Under the pieces are notes generated by a model. It did not search any database and was not told the origin of the DNA. It saw only the letters and a program-made list of their open reading frames with translations. From contig VGBT01000001.1 of the NCBI GenBank assembly GCA_016870395.1, positions 4,376 to 68,375 on the forward strand: a stretch of DNA of 64,000 nucleotides, read 5' to 3'. This DNA is from Actinomycetota bacterium. Lineage in GTDB: Bacteria; Actinomycetota; Acidimicrobiia; IMCC26256; JAENVU01. Both the position numbers and the translations under genes were made by a program. This document shows, piece after piece, positions 6,456-58,561 of this stretch. Within the stretch, counting starts at the first letter, position 1. The number at the start of each line of letters is the position of its first letter.

Positions 6456-6523
6456 TAGCTGGAATCGAACCAGCGACCTCATCCTTATCAGGGATGCGCT
6501 CTAACCGACTGAGCTATAGCCCC
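6450..6523 (-). tRNA. tRNA-Ile (anticodon GAT)
   Basis: The reverse complement is GGGGCTATAGCTCAGTCGGTTAGAGCGCATCCCTGATAAGGATGAGGTCGCTGGTTCGATTCCAGCTAGCCCCA. It forms a cloverleaf with anticodon loop CT-GAT-AA. CCA is not encoded. Confidence 0.95.
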
Positions 6524-6564
6524 GGTGGGAGCGAGCAGGCTAACAGTCGGGATCGGCTGCGAGC

Positions 6565-7044
6565 TCAGCGGCGGGGCTCGGACTCCGAGAGGGTGACCTC
6601 GAAACCGCCGAGCACCTCCGCGAAGAGGTTGTAGAGCGCGGCGCCGACGACGGTGAGGATCGTGGCGAGGGCGACGAACACGACGCCCACGAGCGCTGCG
6701 CCCTCGAGGATCTGCACCGGGACGAGGCGGTAGTTGTTCGAGGTGAGGATATTGCCCATGAACTTCTCGACGTCGTGGATCGCGCCGAGCCCGTCGGCGA
6801 TGAGCCAGAGCGCGACCCCGGCCGCCACGACCACGAGCACCGAGGCGAGGTAGAAGCAGAGCGCGATCTTGAGGACGGACCACAGGTCGAACTTGCTCAC
6901 CCGGACCCGGGACTGGCGGACGACGGGATCGGGCTCGGTCTCGGGCTCGGTCTCGGTCTCGGTGACTGCGACCGCCGCCTTGCGCTTGCGCTGCCGCTTG
7001 GACTTCGCCACCGGGGGTGCGGTCACGACCGGAGCCGGGTCCAT
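6565..7044 (-). CDS. DUF3566-type membrane protein (positional homologue of M. tuberculosis Rv0007)
   Basis: It lies immediately downstream of gyrA. There is an N-terminal charged/TE-repeat region followed by SKFDLWSVLKIALCFYLASVLVVVAAGVALWLI...LYNLFAEVLGGFEVTL, typical of DUF3566. Confidence 0.8.
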   Translation of the reverse strand: MDPAPVVTAPPVAKSKRQRKRKAAVAVTETETEPETEPDPVVRQSRVRVSKFDLWSVLKIALCFYLASVLVVVAAGVALWLIADGLGAIHDVEKFMGNILTSNNYRLVPVQILEGAALVGVVFVALATILTVVGAALYNLFAEVLGGFEVTLSESEPRR

Positions 7045-7048
7045 CGTG

Positions 7049-9511
<2,463 letters not shown>

Positions 9512-48718: not shown

Positions 48719-49036
48719 GTGAGCGAGAAGCGCAAGTACCGGACGTTCAGCCCGGAGCAGAAGACCGAGATCGTTCTCGCGGGTCTGCGCGGTGACCGCA
48801 CGGTGCGGGATGTGTGCCGCGAGGCGGGGATCGCCGAGACCCTCTACTACCAGTGGCGTGACCGCCTGCTGGAGGGTGGGAAGGCGGCCCTGGCGACGAG
48901 CCGCGATCGGGGCAAGGACCCGACCGAGCTCGAACTCCGCGAGGCGAAGAAGCGGATCGCCAAGCTGGAACGGTCGCTCGGCCGCAAGACCTACGAAGCG
49001 GAGGTCGCGGGGGAACTCTTGCGGGACTGGACGTGA
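48719..49036 (+). CDS. IS3-family transposase OrfA (HTH)
   Basis: KRKYRTFSPEQKTEIVLAGLRGDRTVRDVCREAGIAETLYYQWRDRLLEGG plus a leucine-zipper-like ELREAKKRIAKLERSL. SD gaaggagg lies before the GTG start. Confidence 0.85.
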   Translation: MSEKRKYRTFSPEQKTEIVLAGLRGDRTVRDVCREAGIAETLYYQWRDRLLEGGKAALATSRDRGKDPTELELREAKKRIAKLERSLGRKTYEAEVAGELLRDWT

Positions 49037-49893
49037 GCGTCCGCGTGTCCAGAGCCCGCGCGGTCGTCGCCACCGGACGACGCCCCATGGTGGTGGCGAA
49101 GGTGGCGGGCATCTCTCGGCAGGCGATCTACCGGCCACCGACGCGTCGGCCCGCCGCGGCTGGTCCCGGTCGGGTGGGTCCGGACGATCAGGCGATCGTC
49201 GAGGTCGCCAAGGCCAACGCGACTGACGGGACCCGGATGGTCGCGGCGATCGCGTCTCGGGAGCTCGGGAAGCCGGTGAACCGCAAGCGGGTGCAACGCG
49301 TCATGCGTACCCACAAGCTGCTCCAGCCGACGCGCGGGTCGGGCCGCCGGCGTCGGCCGGGGTTCTTCCGGGTGACGCGTCCGGACGAGCTGTGGCACAT
49401 CGACATGACCAAGGTCTGGACCGCGCAGCACGGCTGGGTCTACCTGCACGCGATGGTCGACTGCTGCACCCGGGAGATCACCGGCTGGAACCTCGAGCTG
49501 CGTTGCCGTGATGACGAAGCCATCGACGCCGTGGAGGAGGCGGTCCTCGCGCGGGGTGTTCGGCCCGGTGAGCTGACCCTTGGCAGCGACAACGGCAGCC
49601 AGTTCACCAGTCGGGACTTCCGCCGGCATCTCTCGGCGCGGGGGATCACCCACCGTCGTGGCGGCTACCGCGACCCCGAGAGCCAGGCGTTCATCGAGAG
49701 CTGGTTCGGGCAGTTCAAGAAGCGGTGCGCGTGGCGCGCCGAGTGGGAGACCATCGACCAGGCGAGAACCGAGATCGGCGCGTACATCGACGCGTACCAC
49801 CACCGGCCCCACTCCGGGCTCGGCTACCGCACCCCCCGAGAAGTCGCCAGCACCTGGCGAGACACCCCAGATCTACAAACCCGAGCGACCTGA
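49033..49893 (+). CDS. IS3-family transposase OrfB (rve/DDE integrase core)
   Basis: The DDE triad context is LWHIDMT, LGSDNGSQFTS and ESWFGQFKKR, followed by YHHRPHSGLGYRTP. The GTG start overlaps the orfA stop and the frame is -1 relative to orfA. Confidence 0.9.
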   Translation: MSVRVSRARAVVATGRRPMVVAKVAGISRQAIYRPPTRRPAAAGPGRVGPDDQAIVEVAKANATDGTRMVAAIASRELGKPVNRKRVQRVMRTHKLLQPTRGSGRRRRPGFFRVTRPDELWHIDMTKVWTAQHGWVYLHAMVDCCTREITGWNLELRCRDDEAIDAVEEAVLARGVRPGELTLGSDNGSQFTSRDFRRHLSARGITHRRGGYRDPESQAFIESWFGQFKKRCAWRAEWETIDQARTEIGAYIDAYHHRPHSGLGYRTPREVASTWRDTPDLQTRAT

Positions 49894-50609: not shown

Positions 50610-50681
50610 TGGTCTGGCGACCGGGGATCTGACTGACACGGCCCGGCTGGGCTCGGCGGTCGGTTGCTAGCGTCCCCGCCC

Positions 50682-51254
50682 GTGATCCTCTCCGACCGCT
50701 CCATCAAGGAGGCCCTCGTTTCGGGCCGCATCGTCGTCGAGCCGCTCGACCCGCGTGACGTGCAGCCCAGCTCGGTCGACCTCCACATCGACAAGTACTT
50801 CCGGGTCTTCCGCAACGACACGACGCCCTACATCGACCCCAAGCAGGCCCAGGAGGACCTCACCGAGATCGTCGAGGTCGAGGAGGGCAACGCGTTCATC
50901 CTCCACCCCGGCGAGTTCGTGCTCGGCTCCACCGCCGAGTGCGTGCAGCTGCCCTCCGACCTCGTGGCGCGCCTCGAGGGGAAGTCGTCGTTGGGACGCC
51001 TCGGCCTGCTCATCCACAGCACCGCGGGATTCGTCGATGCCGGATGGGACGGGCACCTCACGCTCGAGCTGTCGAACGTTGCGAACCTGCCGATCGCTCT
51101 GTACCCCGGCATGAAGATCGGCCAGATCTCCTTCTTCCAGATGACCACCGAGGCGGAGCATCCGTACGGCAGCAGCGAGAAGGGCTCGAAGTACCAGGGT
51201 CAGCGGGGACCGACGCCGAGTCGCTACTACCTCAACTTCCGCGACGACCGGTGA
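50682..51254 (+). CDS. dcd: dCTP deaminase (Dcd; possibly bifunctional dCTP deaminase/dUTPase as in Mycobacterium)
   Basis: [22 protein letters not shown]...[10 protein letters not shown]...[38 protein letters not shown] 50682 is chosen as start. Confidence 0.92.
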
Positions 51255-51829
51255 GCCCGCGCGCAGTGGTGCGCTGCAGCTGGGCGGGCAACGACCCGCT
51301 GATGGTCGCCTACCACGACGACGAGTGGGGGGTTCCCGTCCACGACGACCGGCGCCTCTACGAGAAGATCACGCTCGAGGGCGCGCAGTCCGGGTTGTCA
51401 TGGCGCACGATCCTTGCCAAGCGCGAGGGCTATCGCGCCGCCTTCGCCGGCTTCGACCCGGCGAAGGTCGCGCGCTTCACGCCGGCGCGCGTCGAGCGCC
51501 TGCTGCAGGATCCGGGCATCGTGCGGAACCGCATGAAGGTCGAGTCCACCATCGACAACGCGCGCGCGGTCCTTCGCCTGCAGCGCGACGAGGGCAGCCT
51601 CGACGCGTACCTCTGGGGCTGGGTCGACGGCACGCCGATCGTCCATCGCCGGAAGGGCCTCGGCGACATCCCCGCGCAGACCGACCTCTCGAAGGCGATC
51701 AGCAAGGACCTGAAGCGAAGGGGCTTCCGCTTCGTCGGCCCGACGACGGTCTACGCCATGATGCAGTCGGTCGGCCTGGTCAACGACCACACCGTCGACT
51801 GCTTCCGCCACACCCAGCTCGCCGGCTGA
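51251..51829 (+). CDS. tag: DNA-3-methyladenine glycosylase I
   Basis: [48 protein letters not shown]...[26 protein letters not shown] overlap with dcd. Confidence 0.9.
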
Positions 51830-51934
51830 CACCGCCGACCACGTTCCTGCGCCGAAAGCGCGCGCCCTGGTGCTCGGATTCGGCGCCGAATGTGAGCACT
51901 GGAGCGCGCGAATCGCGCGTCTAAACGGGGCGGG

Positions 51935-52426
51935 TCAGCGGGGGTAGAAGGCGTTCGTCGCGTCCTCGACGGCGATGAGCTCCTCGACGGTCGGACGCCC
52001 GGCGCTCCCGGCGCGCAGCGCGGCCGACGTCGCCGCCCGGTTGTTCTTGCACACCGCCGCGGCGTCGTCGGCGTCGGGGCTCACCCACACCGCCGCGATC
52101 AGCACGAGCCGGCCGACGGCGCCCGGTGCGATGGTGCGATCTGCGAGGGCGTCGCGCACCCCGAGTGCCAGCCCTGCCTGTGCCGCACCCCAGGTGAGCT
52201 CGGCGTGGCGCCCGCCCGTGATCGCGGCCTTGTTCACGAAGAGCGTCGGCGGAGTCAGGGCGAGCGACGGTCGGAGCGTGGCCACGAAAGGGGCGTGCCC
52301 GGACGTCGGGGTGGCCAGCGCCGTTGCCCACGCGGTGCCCACGGGTCCGTCCCGCTCGCCCAGCACCGTGTTCACGTGGGCGGCGTTGACACCGTCGCCG
52401 ACGAACGACTCCCCGATCTGCATCAT
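51935..52426 (-). CDS. Formaldehyde-activating enzyme (Fae) family protein
   Basis: IGESFVGDGVNAAHVNTVLGERDGPVGTAW...PPTLFVNKAAI...WGAAQAGLALGVRDALADRTI...VWVSPDADDAAAVCKNN aligns by eye along its length with methylotroph Fae ([25 protein letters not shown]...NTLMFNKVTI...). ATGA overlap with the upstream gene. Confidence 0.75.
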   Translation of the reverse strand: MMQIGESFVGDGVNAAHVNTVLGERDGPVGTAWATALATPTSGHAPFVATLRPSLALTPPTLFVNKAAITGGRHAELTWGAAQAGLALGVRDALADRTIAPGAVGRLVLIAAVWVSPDADDAAAVCKNNRAATSAALRAGSAGRPTVEELIAVEDATNAFYPR

Positions 52427-53247
52427 GTCGGTGTGGAGAGGGCCTCGGTGCGGCCGTAGCGTACGAGCTTGAGCAAGTCGGAGCTCTCGGTCCCGGGAGC
52501 GGTGTCGTAGCCGAGGAGCGCGACGATCCGTGCCACCGGTCCGGTCACCGGGCTGACTCGGTGCAGCGAGCGGCGACCCTCGAACACCATCAGCGTTCCG
52601 GGTTCCATCGGGTACCGCACCACCGACGCGCCCGCCTCGCCGGCGAGGATGCGCGCGACGTCGTCGTAGTTCTCGTCGTCGTCGGTGCGGGTGGAAGGCG
52701 CGCATTCGAAGTCGCCACCTGACTCGCTGCTGCGGATCGCCACGGAGACGACGAAGTCGGTGGAGTCGTAGTGCCAGCCCTGGACGTGTTCCTCCTCCAT
52801 GCGGGTCAGGTTGAGCGCGCCGAGGGGGTCGTCCATGCGATACAGCGCGCCGCGCCCCACGATGCCCGCGATCCAGTCGGTGAGCCGGTCCCACTCGTAG
52901 AGCACGCGGATCGGGCAGTCGCGGGGTACGAGGTCGTACGCGAGCACGCGCGTCAGGCTGTGCACGGAGGTCCGCTGTGGGTGTCCCTCCGGGAACGAAT
53001 CGTCGGGGAGCCCCAGGTACGGCGTTCCCCACACGTCCTCCAGGTGCCCGCCCGCCGCGCACCGGTCGACGTCTGCCGCGACCGCGGCGACGGCCTCGGG
53101 CCGCAGGAACCCGGGCAGGCGGGCCACGCCGTCGGCGGCGAGCGTGGCGTGCAACGAGGCGACCACGTCACGGCGATGCGGGTCGTCGTGGGGCGCGCCC
53201 ACCGGGTAGCGATCGACGGCGACGTACGACGCCGGGTCCCAAGCCAT
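52423..53247 (-). CDS. Fe(II)/2-oxoglutarate-dependent oxygenase-like protein
   Basis: A candidate HxD...H facial triad is present (QGWHYDSTDF ... GRRSLHRVSPV), with a following Arg. 274 aa from ATG 53247, preceded by SD gaggaggtgg. The subfamily is not identified. Confidence 0.6.
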   Translation of the reverse strand: MAWDPASYVAVDRYPVGAPHDDPHRRDVVASLHATLAADGVARLPGFLRPEAVAAVAADVDRCAAGGHLEDVWGTPYLGLPDDSFPEGHPQRTSVHSLTRVLAYDLVPRDCPIRVLYEWDRLTDWIAGIVGRGALYRMDDPLGALNLTRMEEEHVQGWHYDSTDFVVSVAIRSSESGGDFECAPSTRTDDDENYDDVARILAGEAGASVVRYPMEPGTLMVFEGRRSLHRVSPVTGPVARIVALLGYDTAPGTESSDLLKLVRYGRTEALSTPT

Positions 53248-53287
53248 GACCACCTCCTCGGGGCTCGGTGGCGCAGAAACCTGCGGG

Positions 53288-55513
53288 TTACACGCCGGGG
53301 TCGAAGTCGGCGCCGGCGGGTCCGGTGAGCGACGGTTCGCTCTCCAGCGCCTCGACGAGCACCTCGGCGATGTCGGACACCACGACGTCCTCACGGCCTT
53401 CGCCCTTGATGCCGTCGTCGAGCATCACCCAGCAGAACGGGCAGGCGACGGCCACCCGGTTCGCACCGGTCGCGAGCGCCTCCTGGGCCCGCTCCGTGTT
53501 CACCTTCTTGCCGATCGACTCCTCCATCCACATGCGTGCCCCGCCGGCGCCGCAGCACATGCCACGCGTCCCGTTGCGCGGCATCTCCACGATGTCGATG
53601 CCCGCGAGCGTGCCGATCACCTTGCGCGGCGCGAGGTACACGTCGTTGTGCCGGCCGAGGTAACACGAGTCGTGGTAGGTCACGCGGTCCGCGAGCGACG
53701 CGCCGGCGAGCGAGAGCCGCCCATCGGCCACGAGCTCGGAGAGGAACTGCGAGTGGTGTACCACCTCGTAGCTTCCGCCTAGCTGCGGGTACTCGTTGCG
53801 CAGCGTGTTGAAGCAATGCGGGCATTGCGTGATGATCTTGCGCACCCCGAGCCCGTCGAGCGTCTCGATGTTCTGCATCGCGAGCATCTGGAAGATGTAC
53901 TCGTTGCCGGAGCGGCGAGCGCTGTCGCCGGTGCACAGCTCGCTCGGACCGAGGATCGCGAAGTCGATGCCGGCGCGCTGGAGCAGCTTCGCGAGTGCGC
54001 GCGTCGTCTTCTTGTTGCGGTCGTCGAAGCTCCCGGCACACCCGACCCACATGAGGTATTCGTGGTCGAACGCCCCTCCGGGCTCCACCACCTCGACACC
54101 CTCGAGGTCGCCCACCCAGTCGGCCCGGTCGCCCTGGTTCATCCCGTAGACGTTGGCCGAGTTCTCCATCGACCGGTACACGTTGCCGAGCGAGGCCGGG
54201 AAGTTGCTCTCCATGAGCGAGAGGTACCGGCGCATGTCGAGGATCTTGTCGAGGATCTCGATGTTCACCGGGCAGATCTCGTCGCACGCCTTGCAGGACG
54301 TGCACGACCAGAGCTCCTCGGCCGTGATCCGCTCGAACAGCGAGTCGGCCGAGACCGTGATCTCCATGTCGACCCCGATGGGCGGTGAGACCGGCGGGGA
54401 GCCGGTGGCGTCCATCACCTCGCCGGTCTTGAGGACGATCTCGCGCGGATCCAGCGGCTTGCCGGTCGCGTGCGCGGGGCACACCGAGGTGCAGCGCCCG
54501 CACATGGTGCACGCGTCGGTGTCGAACAGCTGCTTCCAGGTGAAGTCCTCGACGGTCGCCGCGCCGAAGGTCTCGAGCTCGGTCTCCATGAGGTTCGGCA
54601 TCTCGCGCATCGCACCCTTGGGGCGGGGCTTGTCGCTCAGATACATGTTCATGGGGCTCGTGATCATGTGGCGCAGCATGGTGGTGGGCAGGATCACGAG
54701 GAACGCGAGGAACGCGACCACGTGGACTGCCCACGACCACCGGTACAGGTCGGAGAGCCCGCTCGTCGACCAGTCCTCGAAGAACCCCGAGAGGCCCCAG
54801 CTCAGGAACGACCACTTCTCGAAGTCGGCGGCGTTGCCGACCGTCGCCCGTAGCTCGGCGATGCGGAGCGTCTCGGTGCTGAACCCGGTGAGAGCGATGA
54901 CCAGGAACACGCTGAGGATCGCGAGGTGCTCGGGCTTGGTCTTGATCCGGATCCGGTAGGGCCGCTGGCCGTAGCGACGAGCGAAGGCCCAGACGATCCC
55001 CACGACGAACACGATGCCGGCGACCTCGGCGAGGAACGCGTAGGTCTGGTACACGCGCCCCTGGAGGAACTTCCAGCCCGTCGGGAGCTGGTGGTCGAGC
55101 TCGAGGAGCACCGTCGCGACGAACAGGACGAGGAACCCGAAGTAGATGAACGAGTGCATCACCCCCGCTGCAGGGTCGCGCAGCAGCGTGCGCATCCAGA
55201 CGCCGCGGCGGAAGTCGCGCATCCGGCGGTGGACGTTGCCCTTCGTGGTCTTGCGGTCGTCGGGTCTGCCGCGCTCGTAGTTGCGGACGCGCAGCGACAC
55301 GAGCCAGGCGACGGTGAACAGCGCGACCGAGACCACTGCGTAGAAGGCCACGAGCATCGCGTCGGGGATGTTGACGAACACCTCGCGGTCGATCGGGACG
55401 TCCTCGTGCCATCCCGTGATCTCCGGCGCGATGCCCGACGCGACGGTGCCGATCGCGGCGAGGACGCCGACGGCGAGCACGAGCTGATGTGGCTTCGGCA
55501 GGAAGCGACGCAT
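53288..55513 (-). CDS. Membrane-bound Fe-S oxidoreductase (NarI-like TM domain + 2x[4Fe-4S] + two CCG domains; Rv0338c-like)
   Basis: There are six or so N-terminal TM helices. Ferredoxin motifs are CTMCGRCTSVCPA and CTSCKACDEICPV. The HdrD/GlpC-type cysteine-rich CCG motifs are CPHCFNTL, DSCYLGR, CCGAGG and CPFC. Confidence 0.85.
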   Translation of the reverse strand: MRRFLPKPHQLVLAVGVLAAIGTVASGIAPEITGWHEDVPIDREVFVNIPDAMLVAFYAVVSVALFTVAWLVSLRVRNYERGRPDDRKTTKGNVHRRMRDFRRGVWMRTLLRDPAAGVMHSFIYFGFLVLFVATVLLELDHQLPTGWKFLQGRVYQTYAFLAEVAGIVFVVGIVWAFARRYGQRPYRIRIKTKPEHLAILSVFLVIALTGFSTETLRIAELRATVGNAADFEKWSFLSWGLSGFFEDWSTSGLSDLYRWSWAVHVVAFLAFLVILPTTMLRHMITSPMNMYLSDKPRPKGAMREMPNLMETELETFGAATVEDFTWKQLFDTDACTMCGRCTSVCPAHATGKPLDPREIVLKTGEVMDATGSPPVSPPIGVDMEITVSADSLFERITAEELWSCTSCKACDEICPVNIEILDKILDMRRYLSLMESNFPASLGNVYRSMENSANVYGMNQGDRADWVGDLEGVEVVEPGGAFDHEYLMWVGCAGSFDDRNKKTTRALAKLLQRAGIDFAILGPSELCTGDSARRSGNEYIFQMLAMQNIETLDGLGVRKIITQCPHCFNTLRNEYPQLGGSYEVVHHSQFLSELVADGRLSLAGASLADRVTYHDSCYLGRHNDVYLAPRKVIGTLAGIDIVEMPRNGTRGMCCGAGGARMWMEESIGKKVNTERAQEALATGANRVAVACPFCWVMLDDGIKGEGREDVVVSDIAEVLVEALESEPSLTGPAGADFDPGV

Positions 55514-55545
55514 GCGACCCCCAAGGAGAGACCGCGGAAACCTAC

Positions 55546-55971
55546 CTACTGCACGGACTTCGCATCAGCATCGCGAAGGCGCTTGGCCATACCGGCGAGG
55601 AGCTTGCGTGCGAAGCCGGGAACCTCGTCGATGATCCCGCCGAACTCCCGCTGGCCGAGCACGACGACCTCCATGGGCGTCTCGGCGACCACCGTGGCGT
55701 TGCGGGGGGCCTTGTCGAGCAGGGCCAGTTCGCCGAACGCGTCGCCCGGTTTGATCGAGGCGACCTTGCGTCCCCGGCGGGTGACCTTGGCGGTGCCCTC
55801 GACGATCACGAAGAACTCCGAGCCGGTGGTCCCTTCGGTGACCAGCACCCGCCCGGCGTCGACCTTCACGTCCTCGGCCCGGCGCGCGATCAGGGCCAGC
55901 TCCTTGCGGGAGAGGGCCGAGAACAGCGGCACTTGGGCGAGGTGGTCGAGGAAGGCATCGCGGCGGGCCAT
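55546..55971 (-). CDS. Stand-alone cyclic-nucleotide-binding domain protein
   Basis: VPLFSALSRKELALIARRAEDVKVDAGRVLVTEGTTGSEFFVIVEGTAKV...GDAFGELALLDKAPRNATVVA is a canonical cNMP-binding fold. 141 aa with no output domain. Confidence 0.8.
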   Translation of the reverse strand: MARRDAFLDHLAQVPLFSALSRKELALIARRAEDVKVDAGRVLVTEGTTGSEFFVIVEGTAKVTRRGRKVASIKPGDAFGELALLDKAPRNATVVAETPMEVVVLGQREFGGIIDEVPGFARKLLAGMAKRLRDADAKSVQ

Positions 55972-56129
55972 GCGGGGAAATCTAAACCGCCGGGAGAGCC
56001 AGGGGAAGGAGATGCCTCGATGAGCCGGGAATAGCAGCCCTCTGATAGAAGTTGCCAACTCTCGACTCAAGGTTCCGCCCAACGGGGCGCCCAATCCCAC
56101 CAACCCCCACTACCACGGAGGCAACACCC

Positions 56130-57994
<1,865 letters not shown>

Positions 57995-57998
<4 letters not shown>

Positions 57999-58561
57999 AC
58001 GCGTCCGACCAGCCGGAGCCGGCTGACGCGCAGGCCGACGCGCAGGCCGACGCGCAGGCCGACGCGCAGGCCGACGCGCAGGCCGACGCGCAGGCCGACG
58101 CTGTCGTCGTCGAGGCCGATTTCGGGCGCCTGATGGGCGAGCGCGACGAGATGCGAGCGCTCGCTCAGCAGGTCCAGGCCGACTTCGAGAATTTCCGCAA
58201 GCAGTCGCTCAAGCGGGAGACGGCGGTGATCGAGCGAGCGACCGAAGGACTCGTCGAGGCGCTGTTGCCGGTGCTCGACAGCTTCGAGCTGTGCGTCGGC
58301 CAGTTGGGCAACGACACCGACCCGCCGGTGCGCAAGGGCGTCGAGCTGGTCTACGCGGAGTTGCTGAGCGTGCTGGAGAAGGCGGGCCTCGAGCGCATTG
58401 ACGCGCTGGGTCACCCGTTCGACCCGAACGAGCACGAAGCGGTGATGTCGGAGGCGGGCAACGACGGCGACGACGGCCCGGTCGTCAGCGACATCATGCG
58501 CACGGGGTACCGGCTCAAGGGGCGCGTGGTTCGCCCGGCGATGGTGAAGGTGGCCGGCTAG
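57995..58561 (+). CDS. grpE: Nucleotide exchange factor GrpE
   Basis: GTGA overlap with dnaK. ...[15 protein letters not shown]...LLPVLDSFE...[12 protein letters not shown]. The N-terminus carries (DAQA)6. Confidence 0.93.
58025..58096 (+). repeat. Six perfect tandem copies of a 12-bp unit (gacgcgcaggcc) inside grpE
   Basis: Direct reading shows the unit repeated at 58025, 58037, 58049, 58061, 58073 and 58085. It is in frame and encodes DAQA x6. Confidence 0.95.

Follow-up and report, generated by a model that had tools for sequence, protein, structure and literature searches.

The formaldehyde-activating enzyme, Fae, has long been viewed as a hallmark of methylotrophs and of methanogen-related one-carbon (C1) pathways. 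C1 units are also handed to tetrahydrofolate in several demethylation systems, by a GcvT-like domain in dimethylglycine oxidase/dehydrogenase, the sarcosine oxidase SoxA and the trimethylamine N-oxide (TMAO) demethylase Tdm, and DmdA is folate-dependent as well. Divergent Fae-family paralogues, Fae2 and Fae3, have been reported from methylotrophs such as Methyloversatilis universalis, where Fae3 is induced on methylamine, an N-methyl substrate (PMC5023235); they coexist with a canonical Fae and a full tetrahydromethanopterin (H4MPT) pathway. Here we report on a 64,000-nucleotide stretch of an Acidimicrobiia genome (contig VGBT01000001.1; hereafter the window), in which the gene for a Fae homologue directly follows, and overlaps, a gene for an Fe(II)/2-oxoglutarate (Fe/2OG) oxygenase. 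From a comparison with other genomes and metagenomes, we conclude that these two genes constitute an undescribed two-gene module, which occurs in at least 67 bacterial species.

The oxygenase gene (53247-52423, minus strand, 274 amino acids) is preceded by a ribosome-binding site, GAGGAGG, 7 nt 5' of its ATG. The ATG of the Fae homologue, the second gene of the pair (52426-51935, minus strand, 163 amino acids), overlaps the TGA of the oxygenase gene in the motif ATGA. Both belong to a run of four open reading frames (ORFs) on the minus strand of 51880-56120, separated successively by 32 nt, by 40 nt and by the 4-nt overlap. An earlier sequence-only reading of this DNA had described the same four minus-strand genes at 51935-55971, and its spacers and overlap are exact when the minus strand is read.

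The adjacency of the oxygenase and Fae genes is conserved far beyond chance. Our comparison comprised 160 loci, 80 from species-representative genomes collected with the oxygenase profile and 80 metagenome loci collected with the Fae homologue. The Fae gene lies immediately 3' of the oxygenase gene, on the same strand, in 67 of the 80 species, with oxygenases down to 39% identical to that of the window, and the pair is likewise present at all 22 metagenome loci holding the oxygenase; as gene calls based on third-codon-position GC (GC3) are noisy at loci of lower GC content, the comparison relied on tblastn and clustering. Stop and start codons overlap in 63 of 89 pairs, 55 of them by 4 nt as in the window, and a further 18 pairs lie within 20 nt of each other. 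The ATGA overlap of the window is the modal arrangement among pairs. The translational coupling of Fae to an HxD…H Fe/2OG oxygenase, which had been claimed from the window alone, thus proves to be strongly conserved across species.

Pair carriers are mainly Acidimicrobiia, namely Iamiaceae, Microthrixaceae (including Ca. Microthrix parvicella) and Ilumatobacteraceae or acIV-type freshwater metagenome-assembled genomes (MAGs), together with four Myxococcota or "Deltaproteobacteria" MAGs and one Acidobacteria-labelled MAG. The flanks of the pair vary by lineage, with mdh and an acyltransferase gene in Ilumatobacteraceae and GNAT, SnoaL, FG-GAP, GH2 or MDMPI/DinB genes elsewhere. Conserved specific neighbours were rejected on account of this heterogeneity, which indicates that the two genes move together as a unit of their own. 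The reverse dependence is weak, as the oxygenase was found at 18 of the 61 close Fae relatives with enough upstream sequence. Such an asymmetry, in which the oxygenase nearly always occurs with Fae and not vice versa, fits Fae as a general handler of formaldehyde and the oxygenase as a dependent source.

The first two genes of the run encode a stand-alone cyclic nucleotide monophosphate (cNMP)-binding domain (55971-55546, minus strand, 141 amino acids; ATG start, TAG stop; PF00027) and an iron-sulfur (Fe-S) membrane protein that we assign from sequence as an EtfD orthologue (55513-53288, minus strand, 741 amino acids; match to 9ojn_A). In the window, they are flanked by a divergent dnaK (56130-57998, plus strand; HSP70, 622 amino acids), which heads a dnaK-grpE-dnaJ-hspR-clpB block, and beyond the pair follow tag (51266-51829, plus strand; DNA-3-methyladenine glycosylase I, PF03352), convergent with Fae, and dcd (50664-51254, plus strand; dCTP deaminase, DCD domains), which is part of the flanking housekeeping synteny. 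We looked up EtfD homologues of three relatives on megabase contigs (L168, L169 and L170). All three contain clpB-hspR-dnaJ-grpE-dnaK divergent from a cNMP gene of 141 amino acids and etfD, and hold neither oxygenase nor Fae at this site. In L168, etfD ends 31 nt from a convergent tag, followed by dcd, which is the framework of the window minus the oxygenase-Fae pair; the segment of about 1.46 kb at 51830-53287 is thus absent between the stop codons of etfD and tag, and tag marks the right-hand edge of the ancestral synteny. The site downstream of etfD is occupied by a DUF2254 gene in L170, where tag-dcd is found beyond etfD, and by RDD and glutathione-peroxidase genes in L169. The dcd gene of L170 (11194-13236) is itself split by an intein with a LAGLIDADG homing endonuclease.

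Among the 160 loci, there was no instance of an EtfD, cNMP, DnaK or Dcd homologue within about 8-10 kb of the pair genes. Together with the relatives that are devoid of the pair, this identifies 51830-53287 as an insertion at a variable etfD-tag site, so that the oxygenase-Fae module is inserted between etfD and tag in this lineage. A step in GC content within 51500-55500, from 0.66-0.67 over etfD to 0.71-0.72 over the pair, is consistent with a separate acquisition of the pair. The region very probably consists of two independent two-gene modules side by side, cNMP-etfD and oxygenase-Fae. Neighbourhood conservation, on which the sequence-only reading of a four-gene unit depended, therefore holds for the oxygenase and Fae (67 of 80 species) and fails for the four genes together (0 of 160 loci), and the four-gene unit is not supported.

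We identify the second gene of the pair as a genuine member of the Fae family, in agreement with the earlier reading, since profile, fold and catalytic histidine concur. Its profile matches clear the cut-offs of both PF08714 (150.9 bits against 27) and the equivalog-domain model TIGR03126 (127.1 bits against 118.05). Its AlphaFold2 (AF2) model, with a predicted local distance difference test (pLDDT) score of 92.7, matches 1Y5Y/1Y60, the Fae of Methylobacterium extorquens, with template modelling (TM) scores of 0.88-0.92 and a root-mean-square deviation (rmsd) of 1.2-1.9 Å; no other fold in the Protein Data Bank (PDB) was retrieved below an E-value of 0.06. The two proteins are thus alike in being single domains of about 165 amino acids with the same fold and scores above the curated cut-offs, at 32% identity (32-36% to canonical Fae for the clade as a whole). 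His22, the acid catalyst, and the cleft residues Phe84 and Gln88 of M. extorquens Fae are reportedly the ones whose roles Acharya et al. described in 2005. H17 takes the place of His22 and does not vary among 146 clade members; W79 stands at the position of Phe84, with retention of an aromatic side chain, and Gln88 corresponds to Q83. The clade has further invariant residues of its own: N19, where M. extorquens has Asp at chain position 23, as well as H44, H74 and W114.

The present proteins differ from M. extorquens Fae in their hosts, which are Acidimicrobiia and Myxococcota and not known methylotrophs, and in gene context, the window gene being coupled to a 2OG oxygenase and not placed in an H4MPT gene island, with no mch, mtd, fhc or H4MPT-biosynthesis genes seen nearby. 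With Fae2 and Fae3 they share the divergence from canonical Fae. Unlike these paralogues, they form a separate clade with its own partner gene, and theirs is the sole Fae gene seen in the window and at the loci examined.

The oxygenase matches PF23169 (HalD) with 48.6 bits against a cut-off of 26; its only other profile matches are weak ones to TauD and WelO5. Its AF2 model (pLDDT 95.4) was compared with solved structures by Foldseek, and the top 41 matches are all BesD, Hal or lysine hydroxylase chains (TM 0.65-0.75, 16-20% identity), the best being BesD, HalA/B/D and the lysine hydroxylase 7jsd. The predicted iron triad, H159-Y-D161…H229, and the 2OG-binding R240 are invariant in 31 homologues. 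In a profile search of PDB sequences (7jsd, 7u6i), the motif G-W-H-Y-D aligns with GWHWDD of the hydroxylase and with GWHWGD of HalB, and L-H-R-V-S-P aligns with the second histidine motif (LHR) of the hydroxylase. The invariant Asp ligand points to a hydroxylase-type member of the BesD/HalD superfamily and not to a halogenase; a radical halogenase like BesD, HalA-D or WelO5, with HxG/A, was rejected because of the W-H-Y-D motif. An AlkB or JmjC demethylase was rejected too, as no 2OG-FeII_Oxy_2 (AlkB) or JmjC match was obtained at E < 0.01.

With BesD, HalA-D and the Lys/Orn hydroxylases (PF23169; 6NIE, 7U6H, 7JSD), which act on free small-molecule amino acids, the window oxygenase shares the double-stranded beta-helix core, the GWH-x-D/G and LHR motifs, the position of the 2OG-binding Arg and a length of about 250-280 amino acids. 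It differs from the halogenases in its HxD motif, and its low identity (16-20%) and own invariants, including many Arg residues and a C-terminal K-x-x-R-Y-G-R motif, set it apart as a separate family, for which we found no name in NCBIfam or the literature. Its genomic partner is Fae, and we know of no BesD-family enzyme with such a partner. The family is large, with at least 488 clusters at 50% identity (E ≤ 1e-30), and its members are almost always single-domain proteins. Among the best 150 family representatives, no (Rosetta-stone) fusion of oxygenase and Fae was present; rare fusions join an N-terminal PhyH domain to the oxygenase or the oxygenase to an aldo/keto reductase (P0507, 537 amino acids; P0404, 838 amino acids). 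In the NCBI record, the window oxygenase is modelled as a 'hypothetical protein' of 174 amino acids, 64% of the 274-amino-acid ORF. Homologues and the ribosome-binding site favour the full ORF.

Both families also occur in other contexts. Four loci of Dongiaceae/Rhodospirillaceae (Alphaproteobacteria), which represent one lineage and were counted as one observation, hold Fae-less oxygenase homologues with 37-40% identity. Beside a LysR gene, their operon reads oxygenase-PhyH dioxygenase-(DddP-like M24)-PotD-like binding protein-DmdA-like GcvT-…-Pirin, where the DddP model gives the M24 protein 390 bits and the DmdA model gives the GcvT protein 308 bits. This context is suggestive of a pathway that breaks down a methylated zwitterion and includes a folate-dependent C1 enzyme. 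The overlapping oxygenase and PhyH genes of the Dongiaceae are mirrored by the PhyH-oxygenase fusion mentioned above.

The Fae clade, in turn, is found at 31 of the 80 Fae loci in an operon of the type (HAL-like lyase)-Fae-MR_MLE-aldehyde dehydrogenase (ALDH; BADH/PuuC-like)-HIBADH-like-Fe-alcohol dehydrogenase (ADH), next to Opp- or OpuA-type ABC transporters. Examples are L004 (6675-16543), L113, L138, L147, L161, L164 and L167, among others, and the cultured Kibdelosporangium persicum also has this operon. A smaller set has the order IclR-ZnADH (class-III/NDMA-ADH-like)-Fae-SDR-FAD oxidase-FGGY kinase. Fae proteins of the three contexts are intermixed, with about 60-69% identity and the same invariant residues, which suggests that the clade is probably one functional type across all three. 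The clade is thus met with betaine- or peptide-type transporters and with dehydrogenases of the choline/betaine-aldehyde type. At one further locus (L086, 3274-6581), two MttB-family methyltransferase genes and a gene for a B12-binding protein, a combination typical of quaternary-amine:corrinoid methyl transfer, are found about 3.4 kb from a Fae relative.

Our leading hypothesis for the pair is that it couples demethylation to formaldehyde capture, which we consider plausible but unproven and, judged from gene content and homology, to have close to an even chance of being correct. The oxygenase would hydroxylate a methyl group bound to a heteroatom in a small zwitterionic metabolite, and N-methyl amino acids, betaines and similar methylated osmolytes are candidate substrates; given the BesD-family precedent of binding free amino acids, an N-methyl amino acid or betaine is the most economical guess. 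The carbinolamine (hemiaminal) product would collapse to yield formaldehyde, and the Fae homologue, produced in matched amounts from the same mRNA, would condense this with a reduced pterin, either H4MPT or, in a host without H4MPT, another acceptor such as tetrahydrofolate. In this way a toxic aldehyde would be detoxified while the C1 unit would be kept usable. This hypothesis draws on the asymmetric dependence of the two genes, on the alphaproteobacterial operon with DmdA- and DddP-like proteins, and on the links of the Fae clade to betaine-type transporters and dehydrogenases. The demethylase plus formaldehyde-capture unit of the sequence-only reading thus gains from the conserved coupling, the identity of Fae and the methyl/C1 context, and loses from the nearest relatives of the oxygenase, which are Lys/Orn hydroxylases and halogenases.

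The proposed logic resembles that of dimethylglycine and sarcosine oxidases, Tdm and DmdA, in which a methyl group is taken off N (or S) and the C1 unit is given to a reduced pterin and not released as free formaldehyde; a DmdA-like GcvT protein is moreover encoded in the operon of the Fae-less oxygenase homologues. The known systems use a flavoprotein as oxidant or direct methyl transfer, whereas an Fe/2OG oxygenase would act here, and the trap, a GcvT-fold domain in dimethylglycine and sarcosine oxidases and Tdm, would be a separate protein of the Fae fold.

A more far-reaching version, which we regard as doubtful, holds that the oxygenase represents a new demethylase class of the Fe/2OG type within the BesD superfamily, acting on small molecules such as N-methyl amino acids, betaines or related methylated osmolytes, and that its obligate partner, a distinct Fae clade, traps the formaldehyde on a carrier other than H4MPT, such as tetrahydrofolate, in non-methylotrophic Acidimicrobiia (including abundant freshwater lineages) without a methanopterin pathway. 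Dozens of non-methylotrophic species have a separate Fae clade tied to a BesD-like oxygenase, which would carry the enzymatic trapping of formaldehyde over to ordinary heterotrophs and would point to an unrecognised route by which Acidimicrobiia, an abundant class in lakes, soils and activated sludge, use methylated compounds. Demethylation would also join the chemistry of a 2OG-oxygenase family that is now mined for halogenases and hydroxylases. As a pair of small soluble proteins, the module offers a testable handle on the role of Fae homologues outside H4MPT-dependent methylotrophy.

Several observations weigh against demethylation and formaldehyde capture. No H4MPT, methanofuran or other C1 genes were seen in the 64-kb window plus 10 kb, and H4MPT/methanofuran genes did not recur across the oxygenase and Fae loci examined. 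The nearest solved relatives of the oxygenase catalyse C-H hydroxylation or halogenation of free Lys/Orn; to our knowledge no demethylase belongs to the BesD superfamily, and the fold is no guide to the outcome of the reaction. The Fae clade is divergent, and its acceptor or even its reaction may differ from that of canonical Fae. The operon with HAL-like lyase and MR_MLE has no evident source of formaldehyde, and 13 of the 80 species hold the oxygenase without adjacent Fae, most of them without an obvious C1 partner nearby. Our full-text searches found no literature describing the oxygenase-Fae pair, nor any on H4MPT in Acidimicrobiia; an opinion article (Chistoserdova 2016) merely lists 'Actinomycetes' among the taxa with some H4MPT/methanofuran genes.

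In a first alternative, the oxygenase would be a conventional C-H hydroxylase acting on a free amino acid or similar small molecule, and the Fae-like protein would have diverged to a reaction without formaldehyde, for example the processing of a hydroxylated or carbinolamine product, or the condensation or opening of another aldehyde-amine adduct. The structural neighbours, all Lys/Orn hydroxylases or halogenases, are in line with this alternative, as are the clade-specific invariants of Fae at just 32-36% identity to canonical Fae, the absence of H4MPT genes from the window and its surroundings, and the lyase/MR_MLE/ALDH/ADH operons, in which aldehyde chemistry abounds and no clear source of formaldehyde is seen. 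We nevertheless consider it unlikely, though the strongest of the rivals: the Fae homologue scores above the TIGR03126 equivalog-domain cut-off, it keeps the catalytic His, an aromatic residue at the Phe84 position and the equivalent of Gln88, its model superposes at 1.2 Å, and the DmdA-like/DddP-like context in Alphaproteobacteria points to methyl and C1 metabolism.

The proximity of tag raises a second alternative, a function in the repair or salvage of methylated bases or of alkylation/formaldehyde damage, in which free 3-methyladenine released by Tag would for example undergo AlkB-like demethylation while Fae clears the formaldehyde. Besides being the convergent neighbour of the pair in the window, tag is co-directional with and upstream of it at 11 Acidimicrobiales species loci, about 300-3000 nt from the oxygenase (L022, L023, L025, L027, L029, L031, L034, L042, L052, L078 and L084), and this adjacency may reflect shared synteny or hint at a link to methylated-base salvage. 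Only two related lineages show the linkage, for which reason tag was rejected as a general partner of the pair. Neither the other 56 pair-bearing species loci nor 20 of the 22 metagenome pairs have it, and at about 30 of those species loci (a freshwater Ilumatobacteraceae-type group) the neighbour is mdh. Relatives without the pair (L168, L170) already have tag by etfD, so that the adjacency reflects the point of insertion, and the oxygenase has no AlkB-type profile match. A repair function is therefore improbable in our view, and demethylation with formaldehyde capture continues to be the reading we prefer.

The single functional operon of the sequence-only reading, with EtfD providing redox coupling and the cNMP-binding protein second-messenger control of a demethylase/Fae unit, is made very improbable, despite the co-directional genes, the short spacers and a simple scan without terminators that would allow read-through, by the lack of linkage at 160 other loci, the three relatives with cNMP-etfD and no pair, the difference in GC between the two halves, the established and different role of EtfD, and the supply of electrons to such oxygenases by 2OG. 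Fe/2OG oxygenases draw their electrons from this co-substrate and need no redox partner such as EtfD. The 40-nt gap and the lack of a detected terminator would allow etfD and the pair to be transcribed together, which would be incidental. The scan for sigma-70 promoters and intrinsic terminators, which covered 51700-56300 and detected none, is uninformative in an actinobacterium with 70% GC.

Our results also revise the assignment of the neighbouring gene, whose product the sequence-only reading had called Rv0338c-like with unknown function. Rv0338c is EtfD, a membrane oxidoreductase with an established role in linking the electron-transferring flavoprotein (ETF) of beta-oxidation to menaquinone (PMC8593149), and the cryo-EM structure of EtfD from Mycobacterium smegmatis has been published (PMC13083937; PDB 9ojn). 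The 741-amino-acid protein of the window contains two CCG domains, 4Fe-4S dicluster domains and a NarI-like membrane part (Pfam/NCBIfam), and phmmer aligns it full-length with 9ojn_A, across membrane and soluble regions (E 1.8e-129, 436 bits). All cluster ligands of EtfD, 17 Cys and His583 (residue list from PMC13083937), are kept in the alignment: Cys301/304/307/422 of cluster D4, Cys311/412/415/418 of D3, Cys503/538/581/584 of the linear 3Fe-4S cluster D1, and Cys637/672/673/709/712 with His583 of the non-cubane cluster D2. The haem b ligands His78/His241 (H120/H282 in the window protein) are retained, and so are Arg306 and Phe230, which lie near menaquinone. We conclude from this conservation that the protein is an EtfD orthologue, a predicted ETF:menaquinone oxidoreductase. 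As a housekeeping enzyme, it would pass electrons from ETF to menaquinone by way of four Fe-S clusters and a b haem; genes for its partners EtfAB and acyl-CoA dehydrogenase are not in the window. Homologues in Acidimicrobiia are 73-85% identical to the window protein, a much tighter conservation than that of the oxygenase or Fae, as expected of a core respiratory enzyme. The mycobacterial protein differs in having a disordered C-terminal tail of about 30 kDa, which the window protein lacks.

A second difference is the conserved gene for the cNMP-binding protein that precedes etfD in the window; the etfD gene of Mycobacterium tuberculosis presumably has no such gene before it. The cNMP-binding protein scores 67.3 bits on PF00027 against a cut-off of 27.5, has a phosphate-binding cassette (FGE…R; F-G-E-L-A-L-L…P-R-N-A) and, at 141 amino acids, is without an output domain; its nearest relative is the cAMP-binding domain of mycobacterial Pat. 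In each of the four Acidimicrobiia genomes compared, those of the window, L168 (cNMP-etfD at 6499-9235), L169 (6329-9208) and L170 (6499-9229), the gene stands directly 5' of etfD and is divergent from dnaK. The small protein may be a regulator of electron transfer from ETF to menaquinone, and its conserved partnership with EtfD hints at cyclic-nucleotide control of the entry of beta-oxidation electrons. The control over the oxygenase and Fae that had been ascribed to it, like the redox coupling ascribed to EtfD, runs contrary to the synteny.

The window as a whole represents the neighbourhood of a replication origin, with dnaA, dnaN, yidC, jag, parAB, trxB, murJ, dnaB, panB and ino1 to the left of the locus and, to the right, the dnaK-grpE-dnaJ-hspR-clpB block with pur genes beyond. 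An IS3-type transposase is encoded at 48719-49893 by orfA (HTH_Tnp_1) overlapping orfB (rve domain), and a contig of the same strain in ENA stops a short way to its right, with about 2 kb left before the inserted pair begins. The N-terminus of GrpE contains a 12-nt tandem repeat encoding (ADAQ)n, with 6.8 copies at 58021-58101 of the window and 2.8 copies in a second assembly of a near-identical strain (L001, 4374-4406), a difference that represents either copy-number polymorphism or assembly collapse.

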